Shown: positions 1,166 to 54,269 of the stretch, piece after piece | How positions within the stretch are numbered: position 1 is the stretch's first letter | How the letters are laid out: the number at the start of each line of letters is the position of its first letter | Made by a program: the position numbers and the translations under genes | Assembly (NCBI GenBank): GCA_015233565.1 | Contig: JADFXM010000043.1 | Span: 44 to 64,043, forward strand | Direction of reading: 5' to 3' | Length of the DNA stretch: 64,000 bases | DNA from: Candidatus Rifleibacteriota bacterium | Lineage (GTDB): Bacteria; Muiribacteriota; Ozemobacteria; Ozemobacterales; Ozemobacteraceae | The notes under the pieces: model-generated | The model's database searches: none | What the model was told of the DNA's origin: nothing | Seen by the model: the letters and a program-made list of their open reading frames with translations, nothing else

Positions 1166-1374
1166 CAGACATCCCCAATCTCGGGGATTAAAATTTGGTA
1201 CCATTTTTTCGATTGATGAATTGCCAACTTGCTTTGGAAGAAATCTTCTGATTTATTTTCATGTAAGTTGGTCTCAGGATAAAATCCAACCGAAAAGAAT
1301 TCCAAAATCAGAAAACTACCTTTTAAAGCCCTTTTCCGAGAAAATGCAAACTATCGATACCAGGAATTCCGAAA
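1166..1374. mobile_element. MITE-like ~209-bp dispersed element (family A), copy 1
   Basis: About 93% identical to 18728-18935. The element begins cagacatccc and ends ccaggaattcYgaaa. It sits in the intergenic region between the EEP gene and the kinase operon. The ORF 1221..1403 lies inside it and is probably an artefact. Confidence 0.6.
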
Positions 1375-7481: not shown

Positions 7482-7771
7482 TAAACACATTCAGAATTCC
7501 AATTCCCGAGGGTATAGTCTTGAGACCATTTTCCCAAAACCTAAAAACGTGAACTCGTATGGATGAGATTTCTGCCTTAACTTTTGGATTATTTGGTCTC
7601 AAAACAAAATTCGGGTTGAAAACTTTTTAATCTCTACGGAATCGGCTTTTGAAGCTGAGCAATCGAAGAAAATGAAGTTTACGACAACAGGAATTCTGAC
7701 ATTACGGAAACACGACTCGATTTAACCGTTTTATCGACAATATTGCACATGAGATCTGAAATTATTACAAA

Positions 7772-11491: not shown

Positions 11492-14400
11492 TTATTGAGG
11501 CTGAGAAGGTGGTGTTACCTCCGGATCTTTCTTATCCTGATCTTCTTTTGCCCTTTCAGTCATCGTCTCTCCGTCCTTTTTGCCTTGAAATAATTCAATT
11601 CCAAAAGACTCTCCGGAAAGAATCAACCAGGCAATTAAAAACAGGAACCCAAGAATTATTCCTTCTGTGGATGAGGCAAGTAATCTTCCAAGGAAAGTGA
11701 GATATCTCCCGAAAACATCCTGTGTCAAATGTAATGCAAAAATCAACAGCAAAAACGGAAAAACTATCAGAAATCCTGAAAAATATTTCCTGTTAAACAA
11801 TTTCATAAAAGCTCTCACAAATAGAAAGCCGATAAACATAGAAAGTCCAAGTAAAACCGGATAAAGCAAATTTTCCCTTGCATAATAGAATTGGATACTT
11901 GGAGCCGCAGAACTACTTGAAATCAATCGCCTTCCGAAAATCATGCGATTAAAAGTCTCAGGAATGATTAAAGTCACCGGGAAAAGCCCTGCTGATTGCC
12001 CCTCGGAATAAGATAAGCTTGAGGTAGAAAGGGGCGAACTTGACGCTTTAGTCGACATCACCTGGCTCATTACATTACTTTGTCTTGCATTTGCCACAGC
12101 GCCTGAATCAACTTTTCCGTATGGGACATTGACTTGTGGAATTTCATCTGCGGAAAATGGGCCGGGACGCTTGATAAAATAGAATTTTTCGGGAGCATGA
12201 ATTTCCCACCTCATTTGACTTATATCAAACGAAAAATTCGGCAGTTGAAGAGTCAAATTTCCAAAACGTTTGAGTGCTTCAAGGGTGGTTTCAAAATTAA
12301 GGCTGACGCAAAATGGAGCAAACTCTTTACTTTGTCGGGGAGATCGAATCAACGGAACATTAATTTCACCGGATTTTCCCAATCCTGGCTTCACAGGCTC
12401 ACAATTTACTTCAGCAGAGATAATCTTAAGGTTGGATGGCATATTTTGAATCAAAAGGAACTGATTATTGTTGTTGCGGACTGTAAGATCAACTCGGGTA
12501 ATTACTTTCCCGTCATCCGTGATCAAAGTTCTTGCATTGGCTCCGTCAATTTGAGCTGTACTAACCGCAACATCCTGATGTTTGGTTATCTTGATCTGAA
12601 ATTTCGGTTCTTTTATGTATTTAAAGGCGTGCAGAATGAACCCGGAATTTTTCTGCTTCAAAGAAACCGGAAGTTCTTCAGGGTCAATTCGGGTTGCCTG
12701 ATCAGCTGCTTCGACACTAATTTCAAAACCCTCGCGACCTTCAAGCGACAAGAAACCTTTTTCCCTCTCTATCGAACCTTCTGGTACAATATTTTTTAGC
12801 GCTGGCAAAGAAATTGGATATTGACCATTTGCCTCAGGAGTGGGAATTTCCATTTCAATCGCCACCGGCAAGACTTGCAACTTCCTGGTCGTCAACATTA
12901 TTTTGAGTTCCTGACCTGTGGAAGTGGGACGCACTTTCCATGAGGATAGATCGGGACAGGTTACTTCAATGACCTCATAGGCGGCCGGCAATTTGAATAC
13001 AAATTCTCCTACAGGTTCAGATTCAATCTGTAGGTTTATGGAATCTGAGATGCCGATAAATCCATCTCCTGTTGTCAAAGAAACTTCATGATCCGCAAAA
13101 ACCTTGGGAATTTGAGGAATTACAGGTTTCACCGGAGCAGCCTGAGTGGCATTTACAAAAATAGGTTGTGGTGCAACAGTCTCAACTTCCTCGACAGCAT
13201 CACGCCATTCCACTTTTAAATTACTGCCGGGTTGTAATGTTGCTGTTACTTTTGTACCATTTGAAATAGAAATGGTCTCAATTCCAATCCCGGAATTGAT
13301 ATCCACTTTCTGGTTTTCTTTATTAATTTGCAAATTCAATTTGATCAACGAAAAAGCTGGAATCGGAATTTCAAAACCTTCCGCCTTGACATTTGGATCG
13401 ATCTTTGAAAATAGATCCTTAGTATAAAGAGCCTCAATTCTGATTTTTCCTTCTTTTTCGGTCCATATTTCGGAATAGTCGCGCATCAGATCATTTGAAA
13501 AATTCTGGCTTTGTGAATTGTCGTAAGCTGCAAGTTGTTGATTGCCGCTATGTCGAACTTGAGCCTGTTGACTAAAGTTATTTTGCAAATTGACCGCAGA
13601 ATTTGAATAACTATTTGATGGACCCTGTTGATCTGTTTGGAAATTCTGTCCATGAATGGATTGAAGCAGATCTTGGTTCAGAACAAAAGATGCTTCTTTG
13701 CCATCAATTAATAGGGATTTCAAACCACTTCCCAAAGCTGGAAATGGAATTTTTTTGAATCCCTTTCCATAAAGTTCTAATTCAAAAACTCCTTTTAATT
13801 CGACCTGTTCACCTTTGATTGTTCCGTCAATACTTCCTGAAACGGCGCCATAGCTAAATGGAGGAATCAAACGTCGCGGGTCGGGTTCAGGAATTCCAAG
13901 GTCTTTAAGGAAATTGAACTGATCGTTACTTAGAAAAACAAGCCCAGACTCGGTTGAAACGCGGTCATTCATTTCTTTGTACAAGAAAAACACATCGGTA
14001 ATCGGCTCCGTTGCAAGACCCAAAGTATTTGAAAAATTGGCACTTTGTGAAACAGAGTTCTGAGAATTTAATCCCTGGGCATTAAGACTTTGGGAACTGG
14101 AATTTTGAGCAAATGCACTAGGGACATTGTCTGAAATTGGCAGGAAAAGAAGCAAAATCACTGTTACAACAGTTACTCCAGTCTTTTTGGAAGTTTTCTG
14201 AATAAAGTAGGAAAGAATTCTGTACAACATTGTCAGCATGATTCCAAAACCAATTCCACTCATAATCGGTTCCTGAATTCCAGGCGCTCTTTCTTCCAAA
14301 ATAATGGATACAATGGCAGTTAAGAAGAAAATCGCGGAACAAATCCATGATCTTTTGTAAATTGCGCAAACTAAAAGAAGTCCGAAAGTAATCAAGCCAA

Positions 14401-17092
14401 TGACAAAAAATCCGAAAGGAATAATCGTTCTGATTGGTGACCAAAAGGCAATTCCAAGGAATTTTGCAGTTTCATTAGGTTGCAATATTCTTTTGTATAC
14501 TGTTGCTGGATAGCCACCTATGGGGAGTTTCATTTCAACAGGAAATGCTCCACGATCTTTCGGAGCAGCGGGCATTTTTGCTGATTTTGCCTTGCCGGCC
14601 AGAATATTTCCTGAGTTTCCTCCGAATGAACTCATTTCCTTTTTCATTTCCATTTCCCTTGCTTTTCTCACCGGAGTTGAATTACTTTCCATTGCCGCAG
14701 CGGCTGGAGCACACGGAGCATCGGCTTGAAGAGAGATTTCATTTTGTGCCATTCCTTCATCTAGGCACTTTCCATCAGAAACCTCGCTCCTTGGCACAGA
14801 ATCATGGTAAACATATGGCTGTGGAGCAGAAAGTTTTGCTCTGGATGTATCAAAGACTCTGTTGATTGATCCTCCCGATGACGTAAATGCCGCCATCACA
14901 ACAAAGACCAAAATAAATGCTAGAAATACCAACCCTAGGGCGTTTTCTCTAATCCAAGAGGGGGAAGCTTCAGGCGCTGGTTTCTCGGAAGTTTTTTTCC
15001 CGAAATAATTTACAAAGTAATAAATACATAATGAAAATAGCAATATTCCAAAGCCAAAAGCGGAAAAAACAAATTCAAATACTACATTTCCAATTATTAT
15101 CGGAATAAATCTGGGAAGGGGCCTGCGAGGATCCATGCTTGATTTTAATGGAAGAATCGAATATCCTTCAGGGCCATACACACTCCAGCAAACTTCAGAA
15201 ATGTTCAAATTAACTTGCGGCAGGAGGAGCGAGAGGGTTTGTATTTTTCCAAGTCTTTTAGAAGGTGTTCGAAAAACTAAACGAAGGTTGAATGATCCCC
15301 CGGAAACATTTTGTCCGTTCTGAGTGTTCAATGGTATAAGATATTTATCTCCACCAGGGCTGACTGCCTTGATTGGAGCTCCATCCCGGGAAACTGAAAT
15401 TATCTGGGACCCAGAAGCTAAATTGATTTCAAGATACTGGCTCCCATTGTTTTTGACAGCAAAGTCTGCGCAATAATAGGCCATTTCGTCCTGTGCAAGA
15501 ACAGTGACTAAATTCATGGAATCAGCAGTGGAAGTGATAACCGGAATATCTGAATGCCTTATGATTTCAAGCAGGAGTTTGAATTGAGTCGGTTCTTGAA
15601 ATCGATATGCCTGCAAAATTGGCCTTGTCGCAAGAGTCTTTACTTCTTCAGGGGCTTCACTAACATCTATTGGGGTGATAAGGGTCTCAGATTTTTCGGA
15701 ATCACCGATTATTTCTTTCTTCTGGATTTCAATTGAGGTTCGTGCCTCAATTCCCAAAAAACCACGTGATCTTTCGGCCCCCAGACACGAGATTACAGGA
15801 GCCTCAACAACACCGCTTACATCCTGCATTTTTGTTTCGCTTACCAAAATAATTTCAATTCGTCCTGAAATTTTGGAATTCAAACGAACTTGAAGATGTG
15901 TGGTTTCCGAAGAAACTTCTGCTGAGAAGCTGTCAAGGCGATCAGATCGGCAGTCAAGAAGAACAGACCCGGATGGAAGTAAAAAATTAAGTGTTCCAAC
16001 CGGAGCACGGGTAATGTTCAAACGAAAAAGAGTGTGATTCCTTATAAATCCTTCCCCGAAAGATACAAGTGAAAATGACTCGGAAAGGATTCTCGGAGGT
16101 TCTGCCGGTTTAGGTGGAGTTAGTATTTGTACATTCTGTTGGGCTTGATTTTGTTGAGCCTGGTTTTGTTTTATCTGTTGGCTCGCAGAAGCGGGGTTTT
16201 CAAGATGTGAAGACTTTGGTTCTTCGGCCACCAGCACTGATGAAATATTTCTAGGAGCCCACCTTAGGGTAAAGCGGTCAGTGGGACCAAGAATACCTGT
16301 TACACGGCTTATCGAAGCTGAAAAATCCTCTGAAGTACAACCTTCGCTGCGGTCAATTTCTCCGATCAGGCCTGATTTGTCTAAGTCTATTCGGAAATTA
16401 TTAATCGGTACTCTCGGAATTTTGAAAGTCAGCTCAGCCTTTTCAATATCGTCTGGCAAAGCAACCTGAAACTGCACTTTCAACAAATGGCTGCCCTTTT
16501 CTTTGACGATCACAAGAAAATCATTCTGCACACCGTTTCTCTTTCGAGATTTCTTTGAATCGGTCCCCTTTTTTTCTACATATTGTCTTTGAAGGGAAAT
16601 AATCTTTTTCCTGGGAGCCTCGTTGTCTTGGATGCCAACAAATGACTCTTGAATGACTCCAATTGGCTTACCATCGAGGATTACTTCGGAAAGGGCCAAA
16701 TCACCGCCAGGAAGTGGAATCGAAACCCATCGTTCGTTTGGAACTTCAAACCTGAATTCGGAGTCGAAAGAAGCTGTCCGATTTTTGATTTTACCGTTGT
16801 ATTCAGCCTTTCCCCAGGTCAAATCGTTAGGGTTGAATGCCAATGGGCTTTGAGGGGCTTTTGCAAGAAAAGAATCCTTTTCTTCCTTCATTTTCTCATA
16901 TATCTCTTTGGGAATTAAAAACCCGGCATTTTTCCCGGATAGTAGAGCATCCAAACTTGAAAAGGGCACATATCGTATCTTTTCATGAATTTTTTGATTT
17001 GAGGTAACTTCACGGTCCTGGCAAAAAATAGCAGGAATTAGTCCGATGGTGAAAAGAAGTACAACAAAGAGAAAAGATTTCCGGTGTGTCAT
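11492..17092 (-). CDS. Giant (1866 aa) signal-peptide-bearing multi-pass membrane protein of unknown function
   Basis: One uninterrupted ORF with an N-terminal signal peptide (FLFVVLLFTIGLIPAIFC). It has three clusters of strongly hydrophobic helices (around residues 640-720, 900-990, 1700-1800). Long beta-rich extracytoplasmic regions are joined by Q/N/S-rich low-complexity linkers (QQIKQNQAQQNQAQQNVQ). No recognisable catalytic motif. Confidence 0.75.
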   Translation of the reverse strand: MTHRKSFLFVVLLFTIGLIPAIFCQDREVTSNQKIHEKIRYVPFSSLDALLSGKNAGFLIPKEIYEKMKEEKDSFLAKAPQSPLAFNPNDLTWGKAEYNGKIKNRTASFDSEFRFEVPNERWVSIPLPGGDLALSEVILDGKPIGVIQESFVGIQDNEAPRKKIISLQRQYVEKKGTDSKKSRKRNGVQNDFLVIVKEKGSHLLKVQFQVALPDDIEKAELTFKIPRVPINNFRIDLDKSGLIGEIDRSEGCTSEDFSASISRVTGILGPTDRFTLRWAPRNISSVLVAEEPKSSHLENPASASQQIKQNQAQQNQAQQNVQILTPPKPAEPPRILSESFSLVSFGEGFIRNHTLFRLNITRAPVGTLNFLLPSGSVLLDCRSDRLDSFSAEVSSETTHLQVRLNSKISGRIEIILVSETKMQDVSGVVEAPVISCLGAERSRGFLGIEARTSIEIQKKEIIGDSEKSETLITPIDVSEAPEEVKTLATRPILQAYRFQEPTQFKLLLEIIRHSDIPVITSTADSMNLVTVLAQDEMAYYCADFAVKNNGSQYLEINLASGSQIISVSRDGAPIKAVSPGGDKYLIPLNTQNGQNVSGGSFNLRLVFRTPSKRLGKIQTLSLLLPQVNLNISEVCWSVYGPEGYSILPLKSSMDPRRPLPRFIPIIIGNVVFEFVFSAFGFGILLFSLCIYYFVNYFGKKTSEKPAPEASPSWIRENALGLVFLAFILVFVVMAAFTSSGGSINRVFDTSRAKLSAPQPYVYHDSVPRSEVSDGKCLDEGMAQNEISLQADAPCAPAAAAMESNSTPVRKAREMEMKKEMSSFGGNSGNILAGKAKSAKMPAAPKDRGAFPVEMKLPIGGYPATVYKRILQPNETAKFLGIAFWSPIRTIIPFGFFVIGLITFGLLLVCAIYKRSWICSAIFFLTAIVSIILEERAPGIQEPIMSGIGFGIMLTMLYRILSYFIQKTSKKTGVTVVTVILLLFLPISDNVPSAFAQNSSSQSLNAQGLNSQNSVSQSANFSNTLGLATEPITDVFFLYKEMNDRVSTESGLVFLSNDQFNFLKDLGIPEPDPRRLIPPFSYGAVSGSIDGTIKGEQVELKGVFELELYGKGFKKIPFPALGSGLKSLLIDGKEASFVLNQDLLQSIHGQNFQTDQQGPSNSYSNSAVNLQNNFSQQAQVRHSGNQQLAAYDNSQSQNFSNDLMRDYSEIWTEKEGKIRIEALYTKDLFSKIDPNVKAEGFEIPIPAFSLIKLNLQINKENQKVDINSGIGIETISISNGTKVTATLQPGSNLKVEWRDAVEEVETVAPQPIFVNATQAAPVKPVIPQIPKVFADHEVSLTTGDGFIGISDSINLQIESEPVGEFVFKLPAAYEVIEVTCPDLSSWKVRPTSTGQELKIMLTTRKLQVLPVAIEMEIPTPEANGQYPISLPALKNIVPEGSIEREKGFLSLEGREGFEISVEAADQATRIDPEELPVSLKQKNSGFILHAFKYIKEPKFQIKITKHQDVAVSTAQIDGANARTLITDDGKVITRVDLTVRNNNNQFLLIQNMPSNLKIISAEVNCEPVKPGLGKSGEINVPLIRSPRQSKEFAPFCVSLNFETTLEALKRFGNLTLQLPNFSFDISQMRWEIHAPEKFYFIKRPGPFSADEIPQVNVPYGKVDSGAVANARQSNVMSQVMSTKASSSPLSTSSLSYSEGQSAGLFPVTLIIPETFNRMIFGRRLISSSSAAPSIQFYYARENLLYPVLLGLSMFIGFLFVRAFMKLFNRKYFSGFLIVFPFLLLIFALHLTQDVFGRYLTFLGRLLASSTEGIILGFLFLIAWLILSGESFGIELFQGKKDGETMTERAKEDQDKKDPEVTPPSQPQ

Positions 17093-18009
17093 TTTATTCC
17101 CCCTGTAAAAATTTCTGATCCACTGTCAAATTTTTTTTCTGCACCCAAAATAATTATTTGCTATGAAAAACTAGAGAAAATTTACGTTTGAACACATTTT
17201 CAAAAGCATCTTTTAAGAAATTGCTCAAATTAATAAGAATTTAAATGGATAGTTTCAAAATTTTTTTTAATATGATGCGATCTTAATCTGAGTCATTGAA
17301 AATGTTCTGCTTCAAACACAAAAAATGGCATCCCTCCTGCGCATAATCACTTTATATTGAAAAGCTCCACTTATTCAATAAAAAAGATTATAGAGCTATT
17401 TGAAACTTAAAACAACCCTCAAATAATACGGAGGTTACTGGTGAGCTATCTTCCTAAAATCCCTGGAAGGATGCTCAATGTTTTTGCGTTTTTGTTCAAT
17501 GTTTATACAATCTTACATTTTGAAAATAACTGATTAGAAACTTTTCTACTGTTGATGCCCTTTTTTATAGATTGGCACTTTTTATGCGAAGCAAAGAAAC
17601 AAAAAATAAATGGAGGTTCTAATGAAAAAAGAACTTGGTGTTATTCTGTTTCTTTTCCCTGTTACTCGTTGGAAATGGCCTGATGGCTTCCAACTATCGG
17701 CCTGATTATACTCAGCAGCACTCTTTTGCGCAGTAGACGGGCCTGTTGTTCTTGCTCTTATTGAACGACTCAGTCTCTTTTACATTTTCAAATTACTCAA
17801 TATGCTGTTTTAAACCCGTAATTTGGAATGTTTATCAAAAGTCTAGCCATCATTTTAATCTATGATGAGAAAAAAAAACAATGATACGTAACAAATGCCA
17901 AGATGACAAAAACCAGAATCGAAAACCAGCATCAAATCAACATCGAATTTGGCAGGATTAGCAAATCTTAGCAATTATGCGTACCGTTGAAAAAAAAAAG
18001 GAAATATTT

Positions 18010-18558
18010 ATGAAAAACTTACTACTATCCGTTTTAATCATGACCAATCTCTTTCTGACTGAAGGTTACTTGTTTGCTGAAGGTAAGTGGCAAGAGCTTA
18101 ATTTAAAGAGCAGTAACATAACCATTAACTTAGATTATCAACTAGAAAACAAACGAACCGACTCCCTTGGCGACCAGGGCGCAGTCCCCGCATACGACAC
18201 CTTTGCAAAGCCTCTTGGGATCAATATCACCGGCAGTGACTTGAGTGCAAAAGATAATGTTTCGGTCGTAATTGTAAACTATGAGCATTCAAGTGGGTAT
18301 AGGCAGGATAAACAACCCGAATATTCTTATTACAAAGTGTTAGACGTTAAAACCATAAATTTGAAGCATGACGAAGTAAGAGCAGGCGGAGGTTTTTGGG
18401 GGCAGATAGATGAATTGCTCGTCAATAGAACCACCAACGATGGCTATGCTATGGGTTACAAGCACTTTGCACAGGAAATAGCAGTAAACGTTAACGGAAA
18501 ATGGTACAAAAACGAACAGACAGGTAATAATATAAAATTTAATCTGTTTAAAAACTAA
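18010..18558 (+). CDS. Small secreted protein, unknown function
   Basis: Signal peptide MKNLLLSVLIMTNLFLTEGYLFA. No recognisable motifs. Confidence 0.5.
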   Translation: MKNLLLSVLIMTNLFLTEGYLFAEGKWQELNLKSSNITINLDYQLENKRTDSLGDQGAVPAYDTFAKPLGINITGSDLSAKDNVSVVIVNYEHSSGYRQDKQPEYSYYKVLDVKTINLKHDEVRAGGGFWGQIDELLVNRTTNDGYAMGYKHFAQEIAVNVNGKWYKNEQTGNNIKFNLFKN

Positions 18559-18641
18559 TTCTAATACCAAGCTGGACGGTTGATTCATGTTAAAAGCGTT
18601 ACAAAACTTGAGTCAACCGTCTTTTTTGTTTCGTTCAAATT

Positions 18642-19006
18642 CCAGACTTCCTGATTCCGAATGACTTTAAATGGCACTTTTTTACCTAGAAAACATTGAA
18701 ATGAAGACAAATTCTTCAACAAAAAGTCAGACATCCCAATCTCGAGGATTTAAATTGGATACCATTTTTTCGATTGATGAATTGCCAACTTGCTTTGGAA
18801 GAAATCTTCTGATTTATTTTCATGTAAGTTGGTCTCAGGATAAAATCCAACCGAAAAGTATTCCAAAATCAGAAAACTACCTCTTGAAGCCCTTTTCCGA
18901 GAAAATGCAAACTATCGATACCAGGAATTCTGAAAGTGCTATTTCATTTTCCGGCAGTAAGTCGTCAAACACTGATCTATTCAAATACGGATCAGGAGAT
19001 CTGAAT
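18642..19006. repeat. Dispersed repeat family B copy, interrupted by a family-A MITE insertion
   Basis: 18642-18727 plus 18936-19006 together match the reverse complement of 63631-63783. The intervening 18728-18935 is the family-A element. Confidence 0.7.
18728..18935. mobile_element. MITE-like ~208-bp element (family A), copy 2, inserted into a family-B repeat
   Basis: Near-identical to 1166-1374. The flanks reconstitute an uninterrupted family-B sequence (caacaaaaagt|gctatttc) as seen at 63.7 kb, with at most a 2-bp 'gt' duplication. Confidence 0.65.
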
Positions 19007-19424
19007 TTTGTGAACAGGTACAATTTTCAGGTTCTAAGTAAACTAGCAGAAACTCCCAATTTTGAAAAAGTGAAAGTCCTTTTGAAAAAACTCCGCCAAA
19101 CCCAGTGGAAAAACCTTTGTTAGGATTTTGGAATTATGCAATAAGCTCAGATAAGCTTTTTTTAGGAAAGTCATTTTCGTCACCGGTTCCTCTTACAGCT
19201 TCACGATTTCTTCCTAAAATTGTGCGCTGTTTACGAAACATATTGGGGGAATTTCTGTTCGACAGCCCGGGGCAACCAACCGAAGATCGATCAGGATTTT
19301 TTCCCTCGTTGCCGTTCAGCAGGACGCCTGGGGAAACCTGTGTCATTGAATATCTCGTTGGATTGCTCTGTATCAATTACGGAATTGCGGTTGTCGCAAT
19401 AAAGAATTAATTTGTGGGAGAAAT

Positions 19425-22400
19425 ATGAACATGAAAGAACCATACCAGCAGCAGAATTTTCCTTTATACGAACCTCGAAACGAACACGACGCGTGCGGAA
19501 TAGGGTTTATTGTTAACATCAATGGAAAACGTTCTCACGATATAGTCACAAAGGGAATCGAGATTCTCATTAATCTCACCCATCGCGGGGCATCTGGTTG
19601 TGATCCTGAAACAGGTGATGGGGCGGGAATAACAATTCAGATTCCCCATAAATTTTTTGCCAAAGAATGCAAAAAAACAGGGATCATTCTTCCTGATGAA
19701 GGCGAGTATGGTATTGGGATGGTATTCCTTCCAGTGACTCAATCTTCAAGGTTGGTCTGTGAAGGAATTATAGAGCGGATCGTGCGAGAAGAAGGATTGA
19801 GCGTTCTTGGATGGAGAGACACGCCTGTTGGAGCAGACGCCATCGGTCGAATTGCACGCGCATCGCAACCTTATATCGAACAGATTTTTATCCGCAGGGC
19901 TGAAGGAATGACGCGAGAAGAATTTGACCGCAAATTGTACGTTGTCCGAAAATGCGTTGAAGTTGAGCTGTACTCGTCGAATATCAAAGAGAAAGATTTT
20001 TTTTACATTCCCTCGCTTTCATCAAGAGTCATTGTTTATAAAGGTTTGCTGCTTGCTCCCCAGATTGCACAATTCTATGTCGATCTTCTAGATCCCGATA
20101 CAGAAAGCCAGCTCTGCCTTGTTCATCAGCGATTTTCCACCAACACTTTGCCGAATTGGCAATTGGCACATCCATTCAGATTCGTAAGCCACAACGGGGA
20201 AATCAACACGATGCGCGGCAATGTAAGCTGGATGTGTGCACGTCAATCCGTTTTAAAGTCAGATCTGTTCGGTGATGATTTCAAAAAATTGATTCCCATT
20301 ATTTCACCGAATGGAAGTGACTCGGCAGCACTCGATAACGCCGTTGAAATGCTGTATCACGCGGGAAGAAGTCTGCCCCACGTTATGGCGATGTTGATCC
20401 CGGAAGCGTGGAACCATGATGTAACAATGTCTCCCGAGAAAAAAGCCTTCTTCGAATATCACGCATCTTTGATGGAACCGTGGGATGGTCCCGCGGCGGT
20501 TGCCTTTACAGACGGAAAAATAATTGGCGCAACATTGGATCGAAACGGACTTCGTCCTGTTCGATACATTGAAACCCACGATGGATTATTGATTATGGCA
20601 TCCGAAGTTGGCGTGTTGCCAATCGAACCAGAACGGGTGAAAGTGAAAGGAAGACTTGAACCTGGAAAAATTCTTTTTGTTGATCTCGAGCAGAAACGGG
20701 TTCTTTTCGATGATGAGATTAAATCACAATTAAGTGCGCTTCAGCCATATGGAGCTTGGATAAAAGAGAATCAGCTAACTTTGGAACAACTTGCAGAACC
20801 CCCGCGCGCGCACATGTTGAGCGAAAAAGATATAGTGCAGCGACAAAGAATGTTCGGCTATAGCGATGAAGATCTGCGAATGATTATTACACCTATGGTG
20901 GTAAACGGAGAAGAAGCGATCGGTTCCATGGGAGCAGATACCCCGTTAGCTTGTTTGTCCGACAAGCCGCAATCCCTGTTCAGCTATTTCAAACAACTGT
21001 TCGCACAGGTAACTAATCCCCCCATCGACCCGATCCGCGAGGAATTTATTATGTCATTGACGAGTTACATCGGCACGGAAAGAAATATCCTCGCGGAAAC
21101 ACCGCTGCATTGCCACACATTGAAATTACAGCATCCGATTCTTTATAATACTGAATTAGAGAAATTGCGTCGCGTTTCACAGGGAGATTTTCTTACTACA
21201 ACTCTTCCGATGTTATTCCGTGTGAATGGCGGGGAGCCAGAGTTGGAACGAGCGCTTGCCGGGCTTTGCCGTCGTTCTTCGCTAGCAATCGAATCGGGCT
21301 ACTCAATTATCATTCTTTCTGATCGTGGTTCAGATGAAGAATACGCGCCAATCCCAAGTTTGCTTGCTTTGACAGCTGTGCACAATCATTTAGTGAGAGA
21401 AAAGACACGAACACAAGTTGCGCTCGTTGTGGAATCTGGTGAACCACGTGAAGTGATGCATTATTGTTTATTGATCGGCTACGGCGCAAGCGCAGTGAAT
21501 CCCTATCTCGCAATTGAAACGATTGAATATCTTGCTAATAAAGGTCGCTTGCCAAAAGATATAGCGACGAAAGATGCGTTGAGGAATTACAAGAAAGCGG
21601 TTGGAAAAGGTTTGCTAAAAGTTTTTTCCAAAATGGGAATTTCTACCCTCCAAAGTTATCGGGGTGCTCAGATCTTTGAGGTGATCGGACTGAATAAAAA
21701 GGTGGTGGAAAAATATTTCCATGGAACCGCCTCCCGAATCGAAGGAATCGGATTGGATGTGCTGGTGGAAGAAGCGAGAAGAAAACACCAATTTGCCTTT
21801 CAACCGCTGCTAGAGGTAGATACTGAACTTGAACTTGGAGGAAATTATCATTTTCGCATCTCGGGTGAAAGGCATCTTATAAATCCCGAGACAGTGATAA
21901 AGTTGCAACAATCCGTTCGCAAGAAAGATTTCAAGACATTCAAAGAATATACTAGTCTTCTTAATGATCAGAACAAAGAGTTTTTCACCCTGCGGGGGCT
22001 GATGGAATTTAAGGAAGGAACAAGAAGTGTTCCTTTGGATGAGGTTGAACCCGTAGAACAGATCGTAAAACGTTTCGTTACAGGCGCGATGTCCTTCGGG
22101 TCGATAAGTAAAGAAGCCCACGAAACGATCGCCATCGCTATGAATCGCATAGGTGGAAAATCGAACACCGGCGAAGGGGGTGAGGACGAAGCGCGTTTCA
22201 GTGCCGATGCGAACGGTGACTTACGTCGAAGTGCAATCAAACAAGTCGCTTCCGGGAGATTTGGCGTAACAACCAACTTTCTTGTGAATGCAGATGAGAT
22301 TCAAATTAAAATGGCTCAAGGCGCTAAACCTGGTGAGGGGGGACAGCTTCCCGGGTTTAAAGTCGACGAAGTGATTGCAAAAACTCGCCACTCCATCGCT

Positions 22401-24002
22401 GGGGTAGGCCTTATTTCTCCTCCGCCACATCATGACATCTATTCCATCGAAGATCTGGGGCAGTTGATTTACGATTTGAAGAATGTGAATCCGACTGCGA
22501 GAATCTCAGTAAAACTGGTTTCAGAAGTTGGTGTCGGAACAGTGGCAGCGGGAGTTGCAAAAGCACACGCGGATATAATTCTCATCAGCGGTGACTGCGG
22601 TGGGACAGGCGCTTCCCCGCTAACATCGATCAAACACGCCGGAATTCCGTGGGAACTCGGTCTTGCAGAAACCCAGCAAACGTTAGTAATGAACGACTTG
22701 CGTAGTCGTGTTAGATTGCAAACAGACGGGAAAATTCAGACAGGTCGCGATGTTGTTGTCGCTGCTTTACTGGGTGCGGAAGAATTTGGTTTTTCAACAG
22801 CACCGCTAATTTCGATGGGATGTTTAATGATGCGCAAATGTCATCTCAATACATGTCCTGTAGGAATTGCAACGCAGAATCCTGAACTGAGAAAAAAATT
22901 CACTGGCACTCCGGAACACGTCATCAATTTCTTTTTCTTTATCGCGAACGAAGTGCGTGAAATCATGGCTAAACTCGGTTTTCGTACAGTCGATGAAATG
23001 ATTGGGCGCGTTGACATTCTGCAACAACGCAAGGATATCGACCATTGGAAGGCTAAAGGGATCGATCTTTCTTCTATTCTTCATCGGCCTACCGTGCCCT
23101 TAAGGATCGGACAACGTTGGATGATTCCTCAAGATCATGGTATTCATGAGGCTCTCGACAATCAAATTATTGAGAAGACAAAAGAGGCTCTTGAGGAGAA
23201 AAAATCGATTGAACTATCGCTTCCAATCAGAAGTGTGCATCGAACTGCCGGTGCATTACTGAGCGGACGCATTGCAAAATCTTATGGTGCAGAAGGATTA
23301 CCGGACAACACAATCAAAATTTATTTCACCGGTTCGGCAGGACAAAGTTTCGGAGCATTTCTTTCAAAGGGCGTTACGTTGACCCTGGAAGGAGATGCAA
23401 ACGATTATGTCGGAAAAGGCCTGTCAGGAGGGAGAATAATCATTTATCCTCCAAAAAATTCCAGCTTTGTTCCGGAGGATAATTCTATAGTTGGTAATGT
23501 TGTTTTATATGGCGCTACAAGCGGTGAAGCGTATTTTTCCGGGAAAGCGGGAGAGCGATTTGCAGTCAGAAATTCAGGAGCAACTGTTGTGGTAGAGTCT
23601 GTCGGCGCAAACGGATGCGAGTATATGACCAACGGGATTGTCGTTGTACTCGGTAAAGCGGGAAAGAATTTTGCGGCTGGAATGTCTGGTGGACATGCTT
23701 TTGTTTTGGATGAAAACGGAGAATTTGATTTAAAAATGTGCAATAAAACCATGGTTGATCTCGAAAGATTAAAGGATGAAGATGAACGCCTAGTTCAAAA
23801 TCTTATAAAGAAACACATAGAACTGACCGGAAGCAAACGCGGACAAAAAATTCTTGATGACTGGAAAGTCTTTGGCGAAAAATTTGTGAAAGTGTTTCCA
23901 CACGATTACAAACGTGTTTTGAATTCTACAAAACAAAAATCAAAAGAGCAAGCAGAAGTCGTGAAAATCAGCGACTCGGTTAAGGAGGTGGCAAATGGGT
24001 AA
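19425..24002 (+). CDS. gltB: Glutamate synthase large subunit
   Basis: 1525 aa. N-terminal amidotransferase domain with Cys1 (HDACGIGF), an FMN/Fe-S central domain, and a C-terminal GXGXG-type domain. The small subunit gene follows immediately. Confidence 0.95.
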
Positions 24003-25419
24003 ACCGACCGGATTTTTAGAATATTCACGTGAAGTTCCGCAACGTCGTCCTGTTTTAGAGCGCTTGGAAGATTGGAATGAGGTTTATATTCCTTTCTCTG
24101 AAGAAAAAGCAAAAACGCAAAGCGCGCGCTGTATGGATTGCGGGATACCCTTCTGTCATACAGGCTGTCCACTTAACAATGTTATTCCACATTGGAATGA
24201 TCTAATTTACAAAGATCGGTGGAAAGAAGCGATTCGGGTTCTGCATTCGACAAATAATTTTCCCGAGTTCACCGGAACTGTTTGCCCTGCACTATGCGAA
24301 TCATCTTGTGTATTGGGAATCAACGAATCGCCGGTGTCCGTTAAAGCCATTGAACGTTCAATCATTGAATATGCTTTTCAGCACGGATGGATAACGCCCG
24401 AATCCCCAAAAAAGCGGACTGAAAAAACTGTTGCAGTGGTCGGTTCAGGACCTTCAGGATTGGCAGCTGCACAACAGTTGAATCGAGCAGGACATCGCGT
24501 AACTGTTTATGAAAAGAATGCTCATATCGGTGGATTGCTCCGATACGGTGTTCCTGATTTCAAATTTGAAAAAAATGTTCTCAATCGCCGTATCGAGCAA
24601 TTGCAGGAAGAAGGAATTGTCTTTATAACCAAGAAAAATGTCGGAGTGGATATTTCCGCACAAGAATTACGTCGTTCCTATGATGCGATCTTGTTATGTG
24701 GTGGTACCGAAGCTTCGCGCGACTTAAAAGTGCCTGGACGAGGATTGAAAGGTATCAATTTCGCTATGGAGTTTCTTCCTCAACAAAATCGCCGTATTGC
24801 CGGGGAAAAAACAGATCCAGAAAAAGATCTTTTTGCCACGGGAAAACGGGTCATAGTAATCGGAGGGGGCGATACGGGGGCGGATTGTCTTGGAACAAGT
24901 CTGCGTCAAAAAGCAGCATCTGTTCATCAATTTGAAATAATGCCGAAGCCGCCTCTTGAGAGAGCACTTTCAACACCGTGGCCGCTCTGGCCGCTTAAAT
25001 TGCGGACCGAGAGTTCACACGAAGAAGGTGGAATTCGTGAGTGGGGGCTTGCGACGACAAAATTTGAAGGCAATGCAAATGGAATTGTTACTAAGCTTCA
25101 CGCAATTCGTGTGGGACCACCGCCGGATTTTCATCCTGTGGCAGGAACGGAATTCTCGCTGGATGCCGATCTGGTAATACTTGCTATGGGCTTCAGTGGC
25201 CCTGCACAAAACGGGTTGCTAGATGAACTTGGTGTTGCTCTTGATACCCCCAGTACGGTTTCAACCGATAAAGAATTTATGAGCACGGTTCCTGGAATTT
25301 TCTCAGCGGGGGATATGCGGCGCGGGCAATCGCTTGTCGTGTGGGCAATCAGCGAAGGCCGCAACGCGGCCCGCTGTATTGATAAGTATTTGATGGGAGC
25401 GTCTAGTTTGCCTTCTTGA
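23995..25419 (+). CDS. gltD: Glutamate synthase small subunit (NADPH-dependent)
   Basis: 474 aa. Fe-S Cys clusters ([15 protein letters not shown]), dinucleotide-binding GxGxxG ([23 protein letters not shown]). Overlaps the gltB stop. Confidence 0.9.
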
Positions 25420-25830
25420 CAGGGATTTGCTTTTTTCACTTCATAGTAGCATGTTCGACTTTGGCTATGTAAAACCTTAATCCGGAAGGAATAATGATTA
25501 AACTGAGAAACAAACTTTTCCAGGAAGATTTTGCGATTCATTGAACCAACTATAAAGATGAAAAATCCTGTCGGGAGACATTCCTGATTGACAAGTTCAA
25601 AACAGAAACATTCTTTGAAACCCAACTAAGTGGAGATCGATGGCATATAATTTGCTTATTATTGTTTTATTCGCATTTATGGGCTGAAATTATTATTTTC
25701 TGCGCAAAATTTGCGCAAAATTTTGCCGGTTTCGTAAGTGCGAAAAGCAAAGAATGGGCAAAAAAGTTACTTTTTTCCATTTACAAGCTTGCCAAAATGG
25801 GTCAAAAACGTTGTCAGTTGAGGAACAATT

Positions 25831-27597
25831 ATGCAATCCAGCTGTTCATTCAGATTTGTGAACAAAAAATTAATCATGAACTTACGGGATCGGGTTTGTG
25901 AGACATCCGAGGAATTGATTTCAAGTGAATTGTTTGTTGAAGTTCTTGAACGTTACGTCAACAAGCTCAGGAGCAAACGGGTTTCACTTCTGAAAATATT
26001 CGGAAAACCTGTTGAAGAAATAGGGAAAGATGACATAAATGAGCTTGTGAAAGTTTTTTGTGTGTTGGTGAAAATGCCAATCAATGCAGTCACAAAACTG
26101 ATTGAAAATTCTGAATGCTTTGCCCGAAATCCCTCGCTTCTACTATCTTTTGTCGACGGTCTGTACAATTTCTGGAGACAATTCGAACGTTTTATAATAT
26201 GTGATTCAACTGGTGACCATCTTCATAAACGTCCATATAGAACATTCAATTCCACGATTGAGTCGCTTACCCACCTTGTACTGCAAACTTATCGAAGTGC
26301 AGGCGAGAATATCAGCGGACAGCACCCGAACATTTATCGCCAGGTTACAGCTGGAGCAGAAGTGGCTGTTATCGCGCTTCCAAGGGAAGTGAAAATTTCC
26401 GGTGGAAGTTATCAACAGCTGAATGCCGTTCCGATGATAAGGCAATTGCTGCTTTATCCGCCCCTACTTTTAAATCCACCGATGAATAAACGCACCGGAA
26501 AATTTGAAAAGGTAGAAAAGAATCCTCTGGAATTGCTTAAAATAAATCCTTCCGAATGGTTGTGCTATCCGGCCAAAGTTGGTATCCAACTGATTCTGGT
26601 ATATATACACCAGAATTTCTTTGAACTCGGATTCTCTTTGTGCAATTTATTCGAACTCGCTGACGACGATTTTTTAAATCGCCCAGTTGACGCCGTATTT
26701 CTTTTCGGGGTTCCGGGAAATGAGCTCGACTCAATGGCTTCGATTCCCACTGTGTTTTTTGATGACCATGAAAAAGGATTGATTTCAGCTGCATGTCCGA
26801 GTAAAGACGAGTTTGGTTATTTTGGTTATTTGAAAAAAATGGTACTGACGCTTCATAATATTAAAGTGATGAAAAACAAAAAAATGCCATATCATGGAGC
26901 AATGATAAATATTACAACCAAAGGAAACAGGTCAAAAACAATTCTTATCATCGGTGATACAGGCGCGGGAAAATCCGAGACCATCGAAGCGCTACGGATA
27001 TTTGGGGATTCACAGATAGAAGAAATCACCATAATTGCTGATGACATGGGATCACTCGACATTACATCTGAGGGAGATGTAGTTGGCTATGGCACAGAAG
27101 TGGGAGCATTTGTGAGACTCGATGATCTTCAGGCAGGTTATGCTTTTGGGCAGCTTGATCGTTCAATAATAATGAATCCCAATCAAACTAACGCCAGAAT
27201 AATCCTTCCGGTAACTACATATGACAAAATCGTAGCAGGATTCAAAGTGGATACCGTTTTATACGCGAACAATTACGAGCAGGTAGATGGGGAGCATCCC
27301 ATAATAGAGCGCCTCCGCACTCCTCAGAACGCTCTTAATGTTTTTCGCAAAGGAACAGCGATGAGCAAAGGGACCACAACTTCAACGGGACTTGTACATA
27401 CTTACTTCGTAAATGTCTTTGGCCCTGTTCAGTATTGTGATTTGCACGATGAAATTGCAAAAACTTACTTTGAAAAATTTTTTGAAAACAACATCTTCGT
27501 CGGACAGTTGCGAACCAGGCTCGGTATCAGTAATTGGGAAAGAAGAGGGCCTGAAGAGGCTGCCAAAGCCCTCCTACTTCAGCTAGCAGAAGCTTAA
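25831..27597 (+). CDS. Hypothetical protein with a C-terminal HPr kinase/phosphorylase-like P-loop domain
   Basis: The segment YHGAMINITTKGNRSKTILIIGDTGAGKSETIEAL...IADDMGSL aligns with the HprK Walker-A region (HG..v...G.GvLItGdSGiGKSEtalEL...ADD). The roughly 350-aa N-terminal part is unassigned. Confidence 0.5.
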   Translation: MQSSCSFRFVNKKLIMNLRDRVCETSEELISSELFVEVLERYVNKLRSKRVSLLKIFGKPVEEIGKDDINELVKVFCVLVKMPINAVTKLIENSECFARNPSLLLSFVDGLYNFWRQFERFIICDSTGDHLHKRPYRTFNSTIESLTHLVLQTYRSAGENISGQHPNIYRQVTAGAEVAVIALPREVKISGGSYQQLNAVPMIRQLLLYPPLLLNPPMNKRTGKFEKVEKNPLELLKINPSEWLCYPAKVGIQLILVYIHQNFFELGFSLCNLFELADDDFLNRPVDAVFLFGVPGNELDSMASIPTVFFDDHEKGLISAACPSKDEFGYFGYLKKMVLTLHNIKVMKNKKMPYHGAMINITTKGNRSKTILIIGDTGAGKSETIEALRIFGDSQIEEITIIADDMGSLDITSEGDVVGYGTEVGAFVRLDDLQAGYAFGQLDRSIIMNPNQTNARIILPVTTYDKIVAGFKVDTVLYANNYEQVDGEHPIIERLRTPQNALNVFRKGTAMSKGTTTSTGLVHTYFVNVFGPVQYCDLHDEIAKTYFEKFFENNIFVGQLRTRLGISNWERRGPEEAAKALLLQLAEA

Positions 27598-27731
27598 GAA
27601 ATACAACCAAAATGCTACTGTGTCTAATTTCCTGACTTCCCGCTAAAAGTTTAACCTACATTTAATGATGGCTTTGTAGAGAATGAGGAATTCCCAAATT
27701 TTGCTAAAGATCGAATAAAAAGGAAAACGCG

Positions 27732-29402
27732 GTGAACGGTTCTCAAACATTGATAAAAGCTCTTGAAAAAAATGGTGTCGAATACATTTTTGGTCTCCCT
27801 GGTGGAGCCATTATCTCTATCTTTGATGCTTTGGTCGAAACGACAATCAAGTTGATTATGGTAAGGCATGAACAAGGGGCAACCCATATGGCTGATGGTT
27901 ATGCACGGGCCTCAGGAAAACCTGGGGTTGTTTTGGTGACCAGCGGCCCAGGGGCTACGAATGCAGTGACCGGTATCATGACGGCCCAGATAGACTCTGT
28001 TCCGATGGTGGTGATTTGTGGACAGACGTCCACTTCGAACTTAGGATTGGATGCCTTTCAGGAGACGGATATTTTCGGCATCACTATGCCGGTTGTGAAG
28101 CACAACTACCTTGTCAATGACCCCGATGATATCCCTCGCATTGTTTCGGAAGCCTTCTATATCGCCAGCACAGGGCGACCCGGGGTAGTTCTCATTGAAA
28201 TTCCTAAGGATGTAAGTTGTTGTGAGTGTCATATCAACGAGAATGCAAAGTTGGATGTAGAAATCCCAGGCTATCGCCTTCCTCCTCCACCCGACGAAAA
28301 AAAAGTGAAAAATTTGGCCAAACTGATTCTGGAAAGCAAAAAGCCCCTTCTGCTCATTGGCCATGGGGCTATTATTTCCGGAGCCCAGGATGAGATCAAA
28401 ACCTTGGCGGAAACGTTGCAGTCTCCCGTTGTCAATACTCTTTTGGGGAAAGGTGGTTTTCCGGAGACTCATCCCTTGTCTTTGGGTATGGCGGGAATGC
28501 ATGGTTCTTATTACGCTAATTATGCCTTGATGAATTGCGACATGATACTTTCCATCGGCTCACGGTGGAACGACAGAGTAAACGGTGATTCTAAGAATTT
28601 CTGCCCTAACGCTAAAAAACTCCATATTGATATTGATCCCGCTGAGATAAATAAAATTGTTTTTCCCGATGGTTTTTGCATTGCTGATGCTAAGGCAGTC
28701 GTGAGAGACCTCATTCCTCAATTAAAGACACTGGATACAAACGATTGGCTCAATGATCTGAGGGTTCAAAGGGAAAATCACCCCCTGATGCCTGCTGAAG
28801 GTGGACTTAATGCGGCTTGCGTTATCCAAGAGTTTTTCAAGCTTTCGAAGGGGAAAGCCATAGTCGCCACTGACGTAGGTCAGCACCAAATGTGGGCGGC
28901 TCAATTTTTTCTCATTGATGAAAAAAACACCTGGTTGTCTTCGGGTGGCGCGGGAACGATGGGTTATGGTTTTCCTGCAGCCATCGGTGCGCAGCTTGCT
29001 TGCCCGGAAAAGACCGTCATTGCCTTTGTGGGAGATGGTGGATTTCAAATGACTTTTGCCGAGCTAGCCACGGCAGCCAACAATAAATTGCCGATAAAGA
29101 TAGTCATCCTCGATAATAAATACTTGGGAATGGTCAGGCAGTGGCAGCAAATTTTCTTTGACAACCGCCTGAGCGGAGTGGAATTGGACGGAAATCCGGA
29201 TTTTGTAAAAATCGGTGAGGCTTACGGCATAAAAGGCTTTCATCTCAAGGAAAGGAAAGACGTTGAGAGTATTTTAAGCCAAGCTCTTCAGTATAAAGAA
29301 GGCCCATGTCTTATACATGCGGAGGTGCTTAGGCAGGAAAATGTCTTTCCGATGATTCCCGCAGGACGCTCAGCCCATCATATAATGATGGAAGAACCTT
29401 GA
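27732..29402 (+). CDS. ilvB: Acetolactate synthase large subunit (biosynthetic)
   Basis: Typical ThDP-enzyme N-terminus ([22 protein letters not shown]) and the GDGGFQM ThDP-binding motif. Followed by a regulatory subunit gene. Confidence 0.9.
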
Positions 29403-29471
29403 TTTTTTGCCTTCTTCAATGGGAGTTTGCAGTTTAATGTGGTTTTTCTAAGTGATGATAGGAGAAAAAAG

Positions 29472-29990
29472 ATGTCTACACCAACACAATATCAAAATTC
29501 CGAAAATTTACACAATTTCAGCCTGATCGTGGCCAATAATCCGGGGGTATTGGTGAGAGTGGCTCTGATCTTTTCTCGAAGGGGGTATAATATCGAATCT
29601 CTTGTGGTATCACCGACCAAGTTACAGAAATTTTCTCGAATGATGATCACAGCCCGTGGAGAGCCTTCTCGTTTTGAACAGATAACGAAACAAATTTCCA
29701 AACTTGTGGATGTCATTGAGGTCGAAGAGCACAACAAAGAAGACATTCTCAAAAAAGAACTCATGTTCGTGAAAGTGGGTACCCAAGAGGATAAAAGAAA
29801 GGAACTTTTTCAGATCGTCAGCGAAAATCACGGAGAGATACTGGACTTTAATTTTCAGTTTACGGTTTTGCAGTTTATCAACAATAAAGACCGCCTTGAT
29901 GGGATTATGAGCAGGCTTGAGGGATTTGAAATCTTTGAAGCAGCACGCAGCGGATGTCTTGCCATGTCGCTCAATCATTCATGCCTTTAG
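29472..29990 (+). CDS. ilvN: Acetolactate synthase small (regulatory, ACT-domain) subunit
   Basis: ACT-domain signature (SLIVANNPGVLVRVALIFSRRGYNIESL). The start was chosen at ATG 29472, preceded by GGAG. The track ORF begins upstream at 29427. Confidence 0.8.
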   Translation: MSTPTQYQNSENLHNFSLIVANNPGVLVRVALIFSRRGYNIESLVVSPTKLQKFSRMMITARGEPSRFEQITKQISKLVDVIEVEEHNKEDILKKELMFVKVGTQEDKRKELFQIVSENHGEILDFNFQFTVLQFINNKDRLDGIMSRLEGFEIFEAARSGCLAMSLNHSCL

Positions 29991-30020
29991 TTCAGAATCA
30001 CAAAAAACAAGGAGAACAAA

Positions 30021-32758
<2,738 letters not shown>

Positions 32759-33074: not shown

Positions 33075-33315
33075 AATATGCTTTAATTCGAAGTTCCAAA
33101 CGTGGTACATTGATAGAGCTCTGATGGAGCAGTGCAAGAAGGTGAAATTCGCGTTAATCAAAAAAGGACCCTGTCCATGTGAACCTTTGGATGTTCTCTT
33201 GAGATCATGATCTTCAAGGCATTACATGGACAGTTTTTTTTGGTGAAAAATAGGCTCAAACAATCATCCTACTTGTGCTTTATGCCATTTTAGACTTGGA
33301 ACTTCGGTTTAATGG
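33075..33315. repeat. ~240-bp repeat (family D), left copy of an inverted pair
   Basis: Its reverse complement is about 90-95% identical to 46488-46730. It contains a 10-bp inverted repeat ctgtccatgt...acatggacag (33171-33233) that encloses the palindrome gatcatgatc, flanked by an A-run and a T-run. Confidence 0.8.
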
Positions 33316-33413: not shown

Positions 33414-33571
33414 ATACCAATCCCAAAAAATATGTGCATCACCCCAAGAACATTGATTTGATCAAAATGAAGTTGGATCGGTATATTTTCTGTATTTTCC
33501 AAGAAAACACGAAACTTTCATGAAAATAAGAGGCCCTTAGTGGATGGTTGAAGCATTCATTTCCGTCAGAC
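33414..33571. repeat. Dispersed repeat family C copy
   Basis: Direct match of about 85% to 63843-64000, the end of the window. The ORFs 33290..33502(-) and 63737..63922(-) lie in the two copies and are probably non-coding. Confidence 0.7.
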
Positions 33572-46196: not shown

Positions 46197-46487
46197 AAAA
46201 GAATGTATGAATCCTCTCTGGAGGATTTACATTAGATCCAGCGACCGTGCCTGTTTTTGGGGCAATTCTCCCATCGAGGCTAACAGCAGCTTTTAGAGTG
46301 AGCCGAGGTCGTCCATCTTTGTGGAAAGCAGAGTTCCTAGCGGGTCTTTCCATCAGATTAATGCATCAACGCTCACAATCAGCAATAAATCATCGGCTCC
46401 AAATAAATTTTGGTGGATATTATACTTTACTGATGAATGAAATTCTATACTTTTTTAAATTTTTGTCCAGGAGATTTATGATTCCTA

Positions 46488-46730
46488 AACCGAAGTTCCA
46501 AGTCTAAAATGGCATAAAGCACAGGTAGGATGATTGTTTGAACCTATTTTTCCCAAAAAAACCTGTCCATGTAATGCCTTGAAGATCATGATCCAAAGAG
46601 AACATCCAAAGGTTCACATGGACAGGGTCCTTTTTTGATTAACGCGAATTTCTCCTTCTTGCACTGCTCCAATCACAACTCTATCAATGTACCGCGTTCG
46701 GAACTTCGGCTTAAATGCCGCGTTCCTTTT
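46488..46730. repeat. ~240-bp repeat (family D), right copy (inverted relative to 33075-33315)
   Basis: Reverse-complement match to the left copy, including the internal hairpin cctgtccatgt...acatggacagg flanked by A/T runs. Confidence 0.8.
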
Positions 46731-46821: not shown

Positions 46822-47559
46822 TTAGGAAACAGGGTTATTTTTTATTCTTTCACGGGCGGTTTCGATCATTGTGTCTAAAGGTGTTAATACTCTGATTCCA
46901 AATTTGTTTTTTACCTCATTATCAAGGACCTGCGCAAATTCAGACAACTCGGGTGATCCACACGCTATCAAGAGCGATTTAGCTCCTTTTTCTGCGCATT
47001 TTTCAACGATAGGCAAAGTATTTTCTGCAAGAAATTGATAATCGGGTTTTGTTTTTTTATTCAGCCATTCGTAAACATCTAAATCCAGGTGTTCTGAGGA
47101 AACCAGATTTCCCTGAAATCCGTACATTTCGACTTGCATTTTGTTGAAATCCATTAATTCGGGAAGATGGGTGTGTAAAATTGAAAATTTTCCGTACAAC
47201 TCGCTTGCCTTTTTATAATTTGCCCAGGCGAGCCCAACTACGGGGAATTTCAGCTCTTTTACGGCTCTCCCAATCGCCGGGTCTCCCCAGCTAGCGACGA
47301 CAGCGGCGCCATACCCTGATTTTTCGGCATCCAGCATTGCATTAAAAAATGGAGATTCATAAAGAGGGCCAAATTTTGCCATGTAGCTTAAATTTATTTC
47401 TTTTACACTCTTAGGAAAAGGGGCTAAATTTGAGTGTTCGAAAACACTTTTAATTTCAACATCGTGGAACCGTTTTAAATAATTTCTTGTATCTTCAAAA
47501 ACATATTCGGTCGGATTACTGTGAGCCAGGAAAAGGATTTTGTTAAAATTCATTTTCAT
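46822..47559 (-). CDS. Hypothetical protein (tentatively Asp/Glu/hydantoin-racemase-like)
   Basis: Start taken at ATGAAAATG with RBS GAGAGGA. Weak resemblance to the racemase superfamily (LLIACGSPEL Cys motif). This assignment is uncertain. Confidence 0.4.
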   Translation of the reverse strand: MKMNFNKILFLAHSNPTEYVFEDTRNYLKRFHDVEIKSVFEHSNLAPFPKSVKEINLSYMAKFGPLYESPFFNAMLDAEKSGYGAAVVASWGDPAIGRAVKELKFPVVGLAWANYKKASELYGKFSILHTHLPELMDFNKMQVEMYGFQGNLVSSEHLDLDVYEWLNKKTKPDYQFLAENTLPIVEKCAEKGAKSLLIACGSPELSEFAQVLDNEVKNKFGIRVLTPLDTMIETARERIKNNPVS

Positions 47560-47953
47560 TTCCTCTCGATTTTTTGCGAATTCGCAGCCGAAAAAAAATA
47601 TAGCAAACCCTTGAAAACTCATGATAGGAATTTGCTTTTTCGCGCATTTATCCTATCATATTCATTTAAATTTTTCAAAAAAAAAATCATTTTTTGAATT
47701 CGGAAAAAATAAAAAATGGGAATGATTTGGTATGCTGAATCGGATTGGGTGGGTACTTTAAAATTTAAAAATTTGGGTATTTTTAGACAGTCTCGTTAGA
47801 ACGGCGGGTTCCCGTTCCCGACATGATGCTGGAGGAACTGCTGAGGCGCTATGGAACAGTTTATTTAGGAAAAGGGCAATTACCGACCGGGCAAGATCAT
47901 AAGAACCAGATTCTTAGGACCATTTCGAGCATAGGCGTCTGCGGAAAAGGTTT

Positions 47954-52158: not shown

Positions 52159-52174
52159 TTTTCAGGAGGGCATC

Positions 52175-52900: not shown

Positions 52901-52913
52901 AAGGCGGGTAACC

Positions 52914-54266: not shown

Positions 54267-54269
54267 AAT

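Follow-up and report, generated by a model that had tools for sequence, protein, structure and literature searches.

The analysed DNA, a stretch of 64 kb referred to below as the window, represents a chromosomal contig of a Candidatus Riflebacteria metagenome-assembled genome (locus tag HQM08_21035). In the intergenic region between a hypothetical gene (17977-18558) and gltB (19425-24002), two short repeats are nested in one another: a copy of a dispersed repeat, designated here as B, extends over 18643-19003 and is split by a copy of another repeat, designated as A1 (18728-18932, 205 bp), as found by alignment of the relevant regions read directly. To our knowledge, no mobile elements have been characterised in the candidate phylum Riflebacteria.

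An intact copy of B (151 bp; 63633-63783, minus strand) provides an empty site with which the interrupted copy can be compared. When the region 63631-63783 was used in reverse complement as a blastn query, B positions 1-85 corresponded to 18643-18727 with 100% identity, and positions 81-153 to 18933-19005 with 98.6% identity. A repeat search returned the same two arms, namely 18643-18727 paired with 63699-63783 (85 nt, 100%) and 18933-19005 paired with 63631-63703 (73 nt, 99%). The arms are collinear, and the bases identical to those of the intact copy are 85 of 85 in the left arm and 72 of 73 in the right one. The left arm (18643-18727, plus strand; B positions 1-85) includes the left terminal inverted repeat of B, CAGACTTCCTGATTCCG, and the right arm (18933-19003, plus strand; B positions 81-151) includes the right one, which ends the arm as ...GGATCAGGAGATCTG. 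Between them, on the plus strand, is A1, with the termini CAGACATCCCAATCTCGAGG and CTATCGATACCAGGAATTCTG, which is missing from the intact B. Since the two arms share 5 bp (AAAGT) of the intact copy, the insertion consists of the 205-bp element and a 5-bp target-site duplication; the left AAAGT, which belongs to the B sequence, is at 18723-18727 and is evident from the arm overlap and direct reading, and the right one is at 18933-18937, as seen by direct reading and blastn (both on the plus strand). This comparison of the filled and the empty B site is direct evidence of transposition. The interrupted B is itself flanked, as indicated by direct reading and a scan, by AATTC (18638-18642, plus strand) and AATTT (19004-19008), which agree at four of five positions.

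The intact and the interrupted B differ at only 1 of 151 positions, and therefore the insertion of A1 is recent relative to the divergence of the two B copies. As judged from their sequences, it is recent also on the evolutionary scale, and the host B is of practically the same age as the intact copy. A preliminary description of this DNA had already recognised the nesting at essentially the same coordinates and taken it as a sign of a small, non-autonomous mobile element that transposed recently in this genome. Results of our analysis uphold this view, as the element is short, non-coding and bounded by inverted repeats and target duplications, the copies of the host repeat are almost identical, and the flanks reconstitute B exactly. 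The dimensions had to be revised: the insert had been given as 208 bp (18728-18935) and its duplication as no longer than 2 bp, and the intact B as 63631-63783, which is a real repeat, although its additional bases belong to the duplication of B and not to B proper. The second copy of the inserted element, noted there as about 93% identical and located at 1166-1374, does exist, but it ends at 1371 and is more similar to A1 than was thought. The resemblance of the ends of A and B that had been pointed out is genuine, as CAGAC... is common to both. That only two copies of the inserted element might exist, with flanks not reconstituting B, had been named as a finding that would speak against mobility; three elements of the A type are present, one of which had been overlooked.

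The second A copy, A2 (206 bp; 1166-1371, plus strand), is identical to A1 at 197 of 205 positions (96.1%), with one additional 1-bp indel, and is flanked by perfect duplications AAATT at 1161-1165 and 1372-1376. The overlooked element, C (207 bp; 7492-7698, plus strand), came to light because both ends of A gave weak hits near 7.5-7.7 kb in blastn. Its termini are CAGAATTCC...GGAATTCTG, and perfect duplications ACATT occupy the positions 7487-7491 and 7699-7703. Over their whole lengths C and A, which belong to the same size class and share their termini, can be aligned with 55-56% identity. The interior of C, with the ends trimmed, aligned to A1 with a score of 11, as compared with -31.4 +/- 6.1 for shuffled sequences, none of which in 1000 scored as high. 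By these alignments C is homologous to A also internally, and B has only its ends in common with A and C. Altogether, the 64-kb window contains two copies of A, two of B and one of C, all of them intergenic and together occupying about 1.4% of the contig; a profile of A and C detected no further copies in the window. In blastn, a stretch at 7739-7760, 40 bp downstream of C, was aligned to the right end of B (...GAGATCTG) with a similarity of 82% over 22 nt and an E of about 1; it may be what is left of a further insertion, or a chance match.

The terminal inverted repeats of every one of these elements are imperfect, span about 18-20 bp and contain the core 5'-CAGA-NN-TCC-NNN-T-NN-CG. All ten termini can be aligned to this core and all read CAGA...TCTG, the CAGA-type terminus pair being CAGANNTCC...GGANNTCTG. 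The similarity between the ends fades beyond about 20 bp. A starts with CAGACATCCC and finishes with GGAATTCTG, and B starts with CAGACTTCCTGATTCCG and finishes with CGGATCAGGAGATCTG. Over 14 terminal positions the two ends match as inverted repeats at 11 positions in B and C, and at 8, which is a weak match, in A. The motif CAGANNTCCYGRT, searched for with at most one mismatch, occurs in the window 15 times, as compared with 3.5 +/- 1.8 expected occurrences, and in no shuffled sequence was the number of 15 reached. Nine of the ten ends are the top hits of a terminus profile in the window, and nothing else there is comparable; the tenth, the left end of A2, has a 1-bp insertion. A scan for pairs of CAGA-type ends also singled out 47104-49171 as a possible 2-kb "element", the ends of which match at 12 of 14 positions. 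We rejected it, as both its ends are inside unrelated genes and, at the threshold used, the scan gave 3.6 such pairs per shuffled sequence.

Direct repeats of 5 bp abut the termini of all five elements, and are perfect in the case of four of them and matched at four of five positions in the fifth. The probability of such an identity of two 5-mers at these spacings by chance in the window is 0.0017 for a perfect match and 0.022 for a match of at least four of five. Besides AAATT of A2, ACATT of C, AAAGT of A1, and AATTC/AATTT of the interrupted B, these repeats include ATCTT of the intact B, perfect at 63628-63632 and 63784-63788 (AAGAT in the orientation of the element). Nine of the ten flank copies, read in the element orientation, fit the pattern A-N-N-N-T, the exception being AATTC at the left of the interrupted B, which suggests that the target is AT-rich and loosely palindromic. 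The left flanks differ from element to element (AAATT, ACATT, AATTC, AAAGT, and AAGAT), and at none of the termini is there an abutting TA.

None of our searches indicated a coding function of the elements. An ORF of 150 aa that starts with ATG (18671-19123, plus strand) crosses the left arm of B, A1, and the right arm of B; it has no homologues and no Pfam hit, and is best treated as spurious and created by the repeats. When the open pieces of A, B, and C were all combined in one chimeric query, none of the 5.8 billion protein clusters searched matched it. A frame of 68 codons is open in both A copies, and a coding role for it was considered and rejected: 4.6% of shuffled sequences contain an equal one, C does not have it, and homologues were not found. 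In Rfam, no match to the window reached the gathering threshold, and the only sub-threshold hit, beside the locus, is a chance one.

Prokaryotic MITEs are defined as elements with inverted ends and flanking direct repeats that contain no ORF and are mobilised in trans by a transposase which a full-length relative supplies, and the nesting of such elements in each other is a routine occurrence (PMC3852290). A, B, and C are all below about 500 bp, non-coding, bounded by terminal inverted repeats, and associated with a target duplication of constant 5-bp length. We therefore consider them, with a probability of roughly 0.85, to be classical MITEs of the TIR/TSD type, short and non-coding, that derive from a single insertion-sequence lineage or from lineages closely related to one another. 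Prokaryotic examples include the Correia elements of Neisseria, RUP of Streptococcus pneumoniae, and Nezha of cyanobacteria. The elements described here are like them in size (150-210 bp), in terminal inverted repeats, target-site duplication and the lack of coding capacity, as well as in their intergenic location, the coexistence of several related families within a genome, and mutual insertion; in sequence, they are not similar to anything searched. Correia and RUP are derived from IS630, and their duplication is the TA dinucleotide, in contrast to the 5 bp found here. The origin of A, B, and C from an IS630/Tc1-mariner element was thus rejected on the basis of the duplication length and the lack of TA at the termini. 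The three families were previously uncatalogued, and are of an ordinary element kind that reveals no new kind of mechanism.

The preliminary description had suggested another class, that of IS200/IS605-derived elements such as PATEs, which transpose in single-stranded form by means of a TnpA of the Y1 (HUH) type that recognises subterminal hairpins. PATEs are also small, non-coding and dispersed, and folding speaks for such elements in the case of B, which, as single-stranded DNA, folds better than all 200 of its shuffled versions (z = -3.5) and contains a hairpin close to its right end. A, in contrast, does not fold better than shuffled sequences (z = -1.1), and a search for TnpA(Y1) and TnpB, suggested in that description, indicated that neither is encoded in the window. 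Elements of the IS200/IS605 type have no terminal inverted repeats, generate no target duplication, and use a fixed tetra- or pentanucleotide as the target, on the 3' side of which they insert. While PATEs depend on subterminal hairpins, all five elements of the window have inverted termini and 5-bp duplications, both foreign to IS200/IS605, and their left flanks vary with no fixed motif. The elements are therefore not IS200/605- or PATE-like, and we regard this class assignment as hardly credible. Nor does it seem at all probable, if a shade less remote, that the nesting is an artefact, produced by a chimeric metagenome assembly that joined repeats or by recombination between dispersed repeats. 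The source is a metagenome-assembled genome, and repeats are commonly misassembled. However, neither misassembly nor homologous recombination would place a complete element with both its ends inside another one, or cause a duplication of precisely 5 bp in the host repeat. Moreover, both arms of the host are collinear and in register, and the identical architecture is found at three further elements located at unrelated sites.

The constant 5-bp duplication, common to all the elements, would also be expected of derivatives of a catalogued family, as it is characteristic of Tn3, IS1380/ISEcp1, the IS2 group, IS1202, Tn7, and Tn402. In the case of the Tn3-derived TIMEs the likeness includes also the non-autonomous nature and the inverted repeats at the boundaries, and in the case of ISEcp1/IS1380 the AT-rich targets, as ISEcp1 typically inserts into 5-bp targets rich in A+T. 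The termini are what sets the elements apart. The termini of Tn3 start with GGGG and comprise inverted repeats of about 38 bp, as do those of TIMEs, those of IS1380 start with CC, and those of IS2, IS1202, Tn7, Tn402, and Mu are TG...CA. The ends of the elements studied here are of about 18-20 bp, start with CAGA, and in all ten cases are of the CAGA...TCTG type, unlike any of the termini known for these families; in addition, no transposase of the IS1380 type is encoded in the window. Consequently, we consider the derivation of A, B, and C from the Tn3 group or from another of those 5-bp-duplicating families (IS1380/ISEcp1-like, IS2 group, IS1202, Tn7, or Tn402) as improbable. A somewhat bolder interpretation of the same termini is that A, B, and C form a MITE superfamily, in which the combination of CAGA...TCTG with a 5-bp A-N-N-N-T duplication is outside of the IS families known to us, and that their mobiliser represents an undescribed transposase lineage, currently active in Riflebacteria. 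We treat it as a tentative and rather unlikely possibility. The one point of some novelty would be the identity of the transposase family in which CAGA termini occur together with a duplication of 5 bp.

If the elements are classical MITEs, as we favour, a transposase encoded elsewhere in the genome would bind both ends of an element through the terminal sequence of about 20 bp, acting presumably in trans. It would cut at the CAGA/TCTG boundaries and join the element to a target opened by 5-bp staggered cuts, and the subsequent repair of the gaps would duplicate those 5 bp. The chemistry is presumed to be that of a DDE-type transposase. In the probable order of events, B would have landed first, 85 bp downstream of the hypothetical gene and upstream of gltB, and A would then have landed in AAAGT, at positions 81-85 of B. 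The window can equally well be read as the arrival of the composite at 18.7 kb as a unit or as the entry of A at that place, and either conservative (cut-and-paste) or replicative (copy-and-paste) movement fits it. Both ends of B are undamaged in the 361-bp composite, so the composite could in principle still move.

No transposase domain was detected in the scanned ORFs of at least 90 aa, which include all long non-overlapping ORFs of the window, and no autonomous element with termini of the CAGA type was found in the window. Searches of wider scope were negative as well. A 20-mer taken from the conserved core of A and required to match exactly had no hits in 185,579 species-representative genomes and a single one in the JGI metagenomes, where the 20-mer alone matches, inside an unrelated ORF, which indicates a chance hit. 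A 21-mer of the B end had no hits in viral contigs, and the plasmid and phage collections were negative in blastn with the 361-bp composite. Related DNA is also absent from about 1.1 Mb of other loci, including the gltB loci of the nearest relatives. The nearest gltB proteins are 87% identical to that of the contig, and in their loci ilvN is directly upstream of gltB, with no related repeat DNA. The closest relative of the neighbouring 193-aa protein shows 47% identity, and its locus is not syntenic. Because the gene order around gltB is different in the relatives, a cross-strain comparison of empty sites is not possible with public data.

The comparison of the filled and the empty site within one genome is thus a textbook proof that small non-autonomous transposons have moved recently in an uncultivated representative of Riflebacteria. 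The exact ends, the duplication and the target preference are now defined and can guide a search for the autonomous partner as well as the annotation of the repeats, which, if left unannotated, give rise to spurious ORFs, such as that at 18671-19123. The elements adjoin promoters of metabolic genes (gltB), and may matter for assembly breaks, rearrangements and gene regulation in this lineage.

The gene order in the nearest relatives is ilvB-ilvN-gltB-gltD-ilvC. In the window, the region 17977-32758 comprises the hypothetical gene, the nested MITEs, gltB-gltD, a gene for an unknown 588-aa protein, and ilvB-ilvN-ilvD-ilvC, which places the MITE pair at a synteny breakpoint.

Two more repeats were observed in the window. 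Repeat D, of about 230 bp, occurs at 33082-33311 and 46486-46715 as two copies of 95% identity in inverted orientation, with the inverted ends TTTAA-NN-CGAAGTTCC...GGAACTTCGG-TTTAA. The copies bracket 13.2 kb in which an ammonium transporter gene and a complete operon for aromatic amino acids (shikimate pathway) are located. The G+C content of this operon is 50-53%, as compared with about 40% in the flanks. The segment may be an island that was acquired horizontally, with MITEs on either side. Repeat E, of about 150 bp (33414-33570 and 63843-63990), is present in two copies of 83-85% identity with a 9-bp indel, and has no Rfam match. One of its copies is 100 bp from the first copy of D, and the other is 60 bp from the intact B, near the end of the contig.

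Among the remaining genes of the window, a 1866-aa ORF at 11492-17092 (minus strand) has no Pfam or NCBIfam match. The gene at 58697-61345 (plus strand) encodes a protein of 882 aa with the major vault protein shoulder (PF11978, 1.2e-28) and vault repeat (PF17795, 3.7e-08) domains, which is unusual for a bacterium and has no NCBIfam match. An srfABC-like cluster at 49405-56834 (plus strand) encodes SrfB (PF07520), the product of an unannotated 241-aa ORF, a protein of the SrfA family, and Virul_Fac (SrfC-like).
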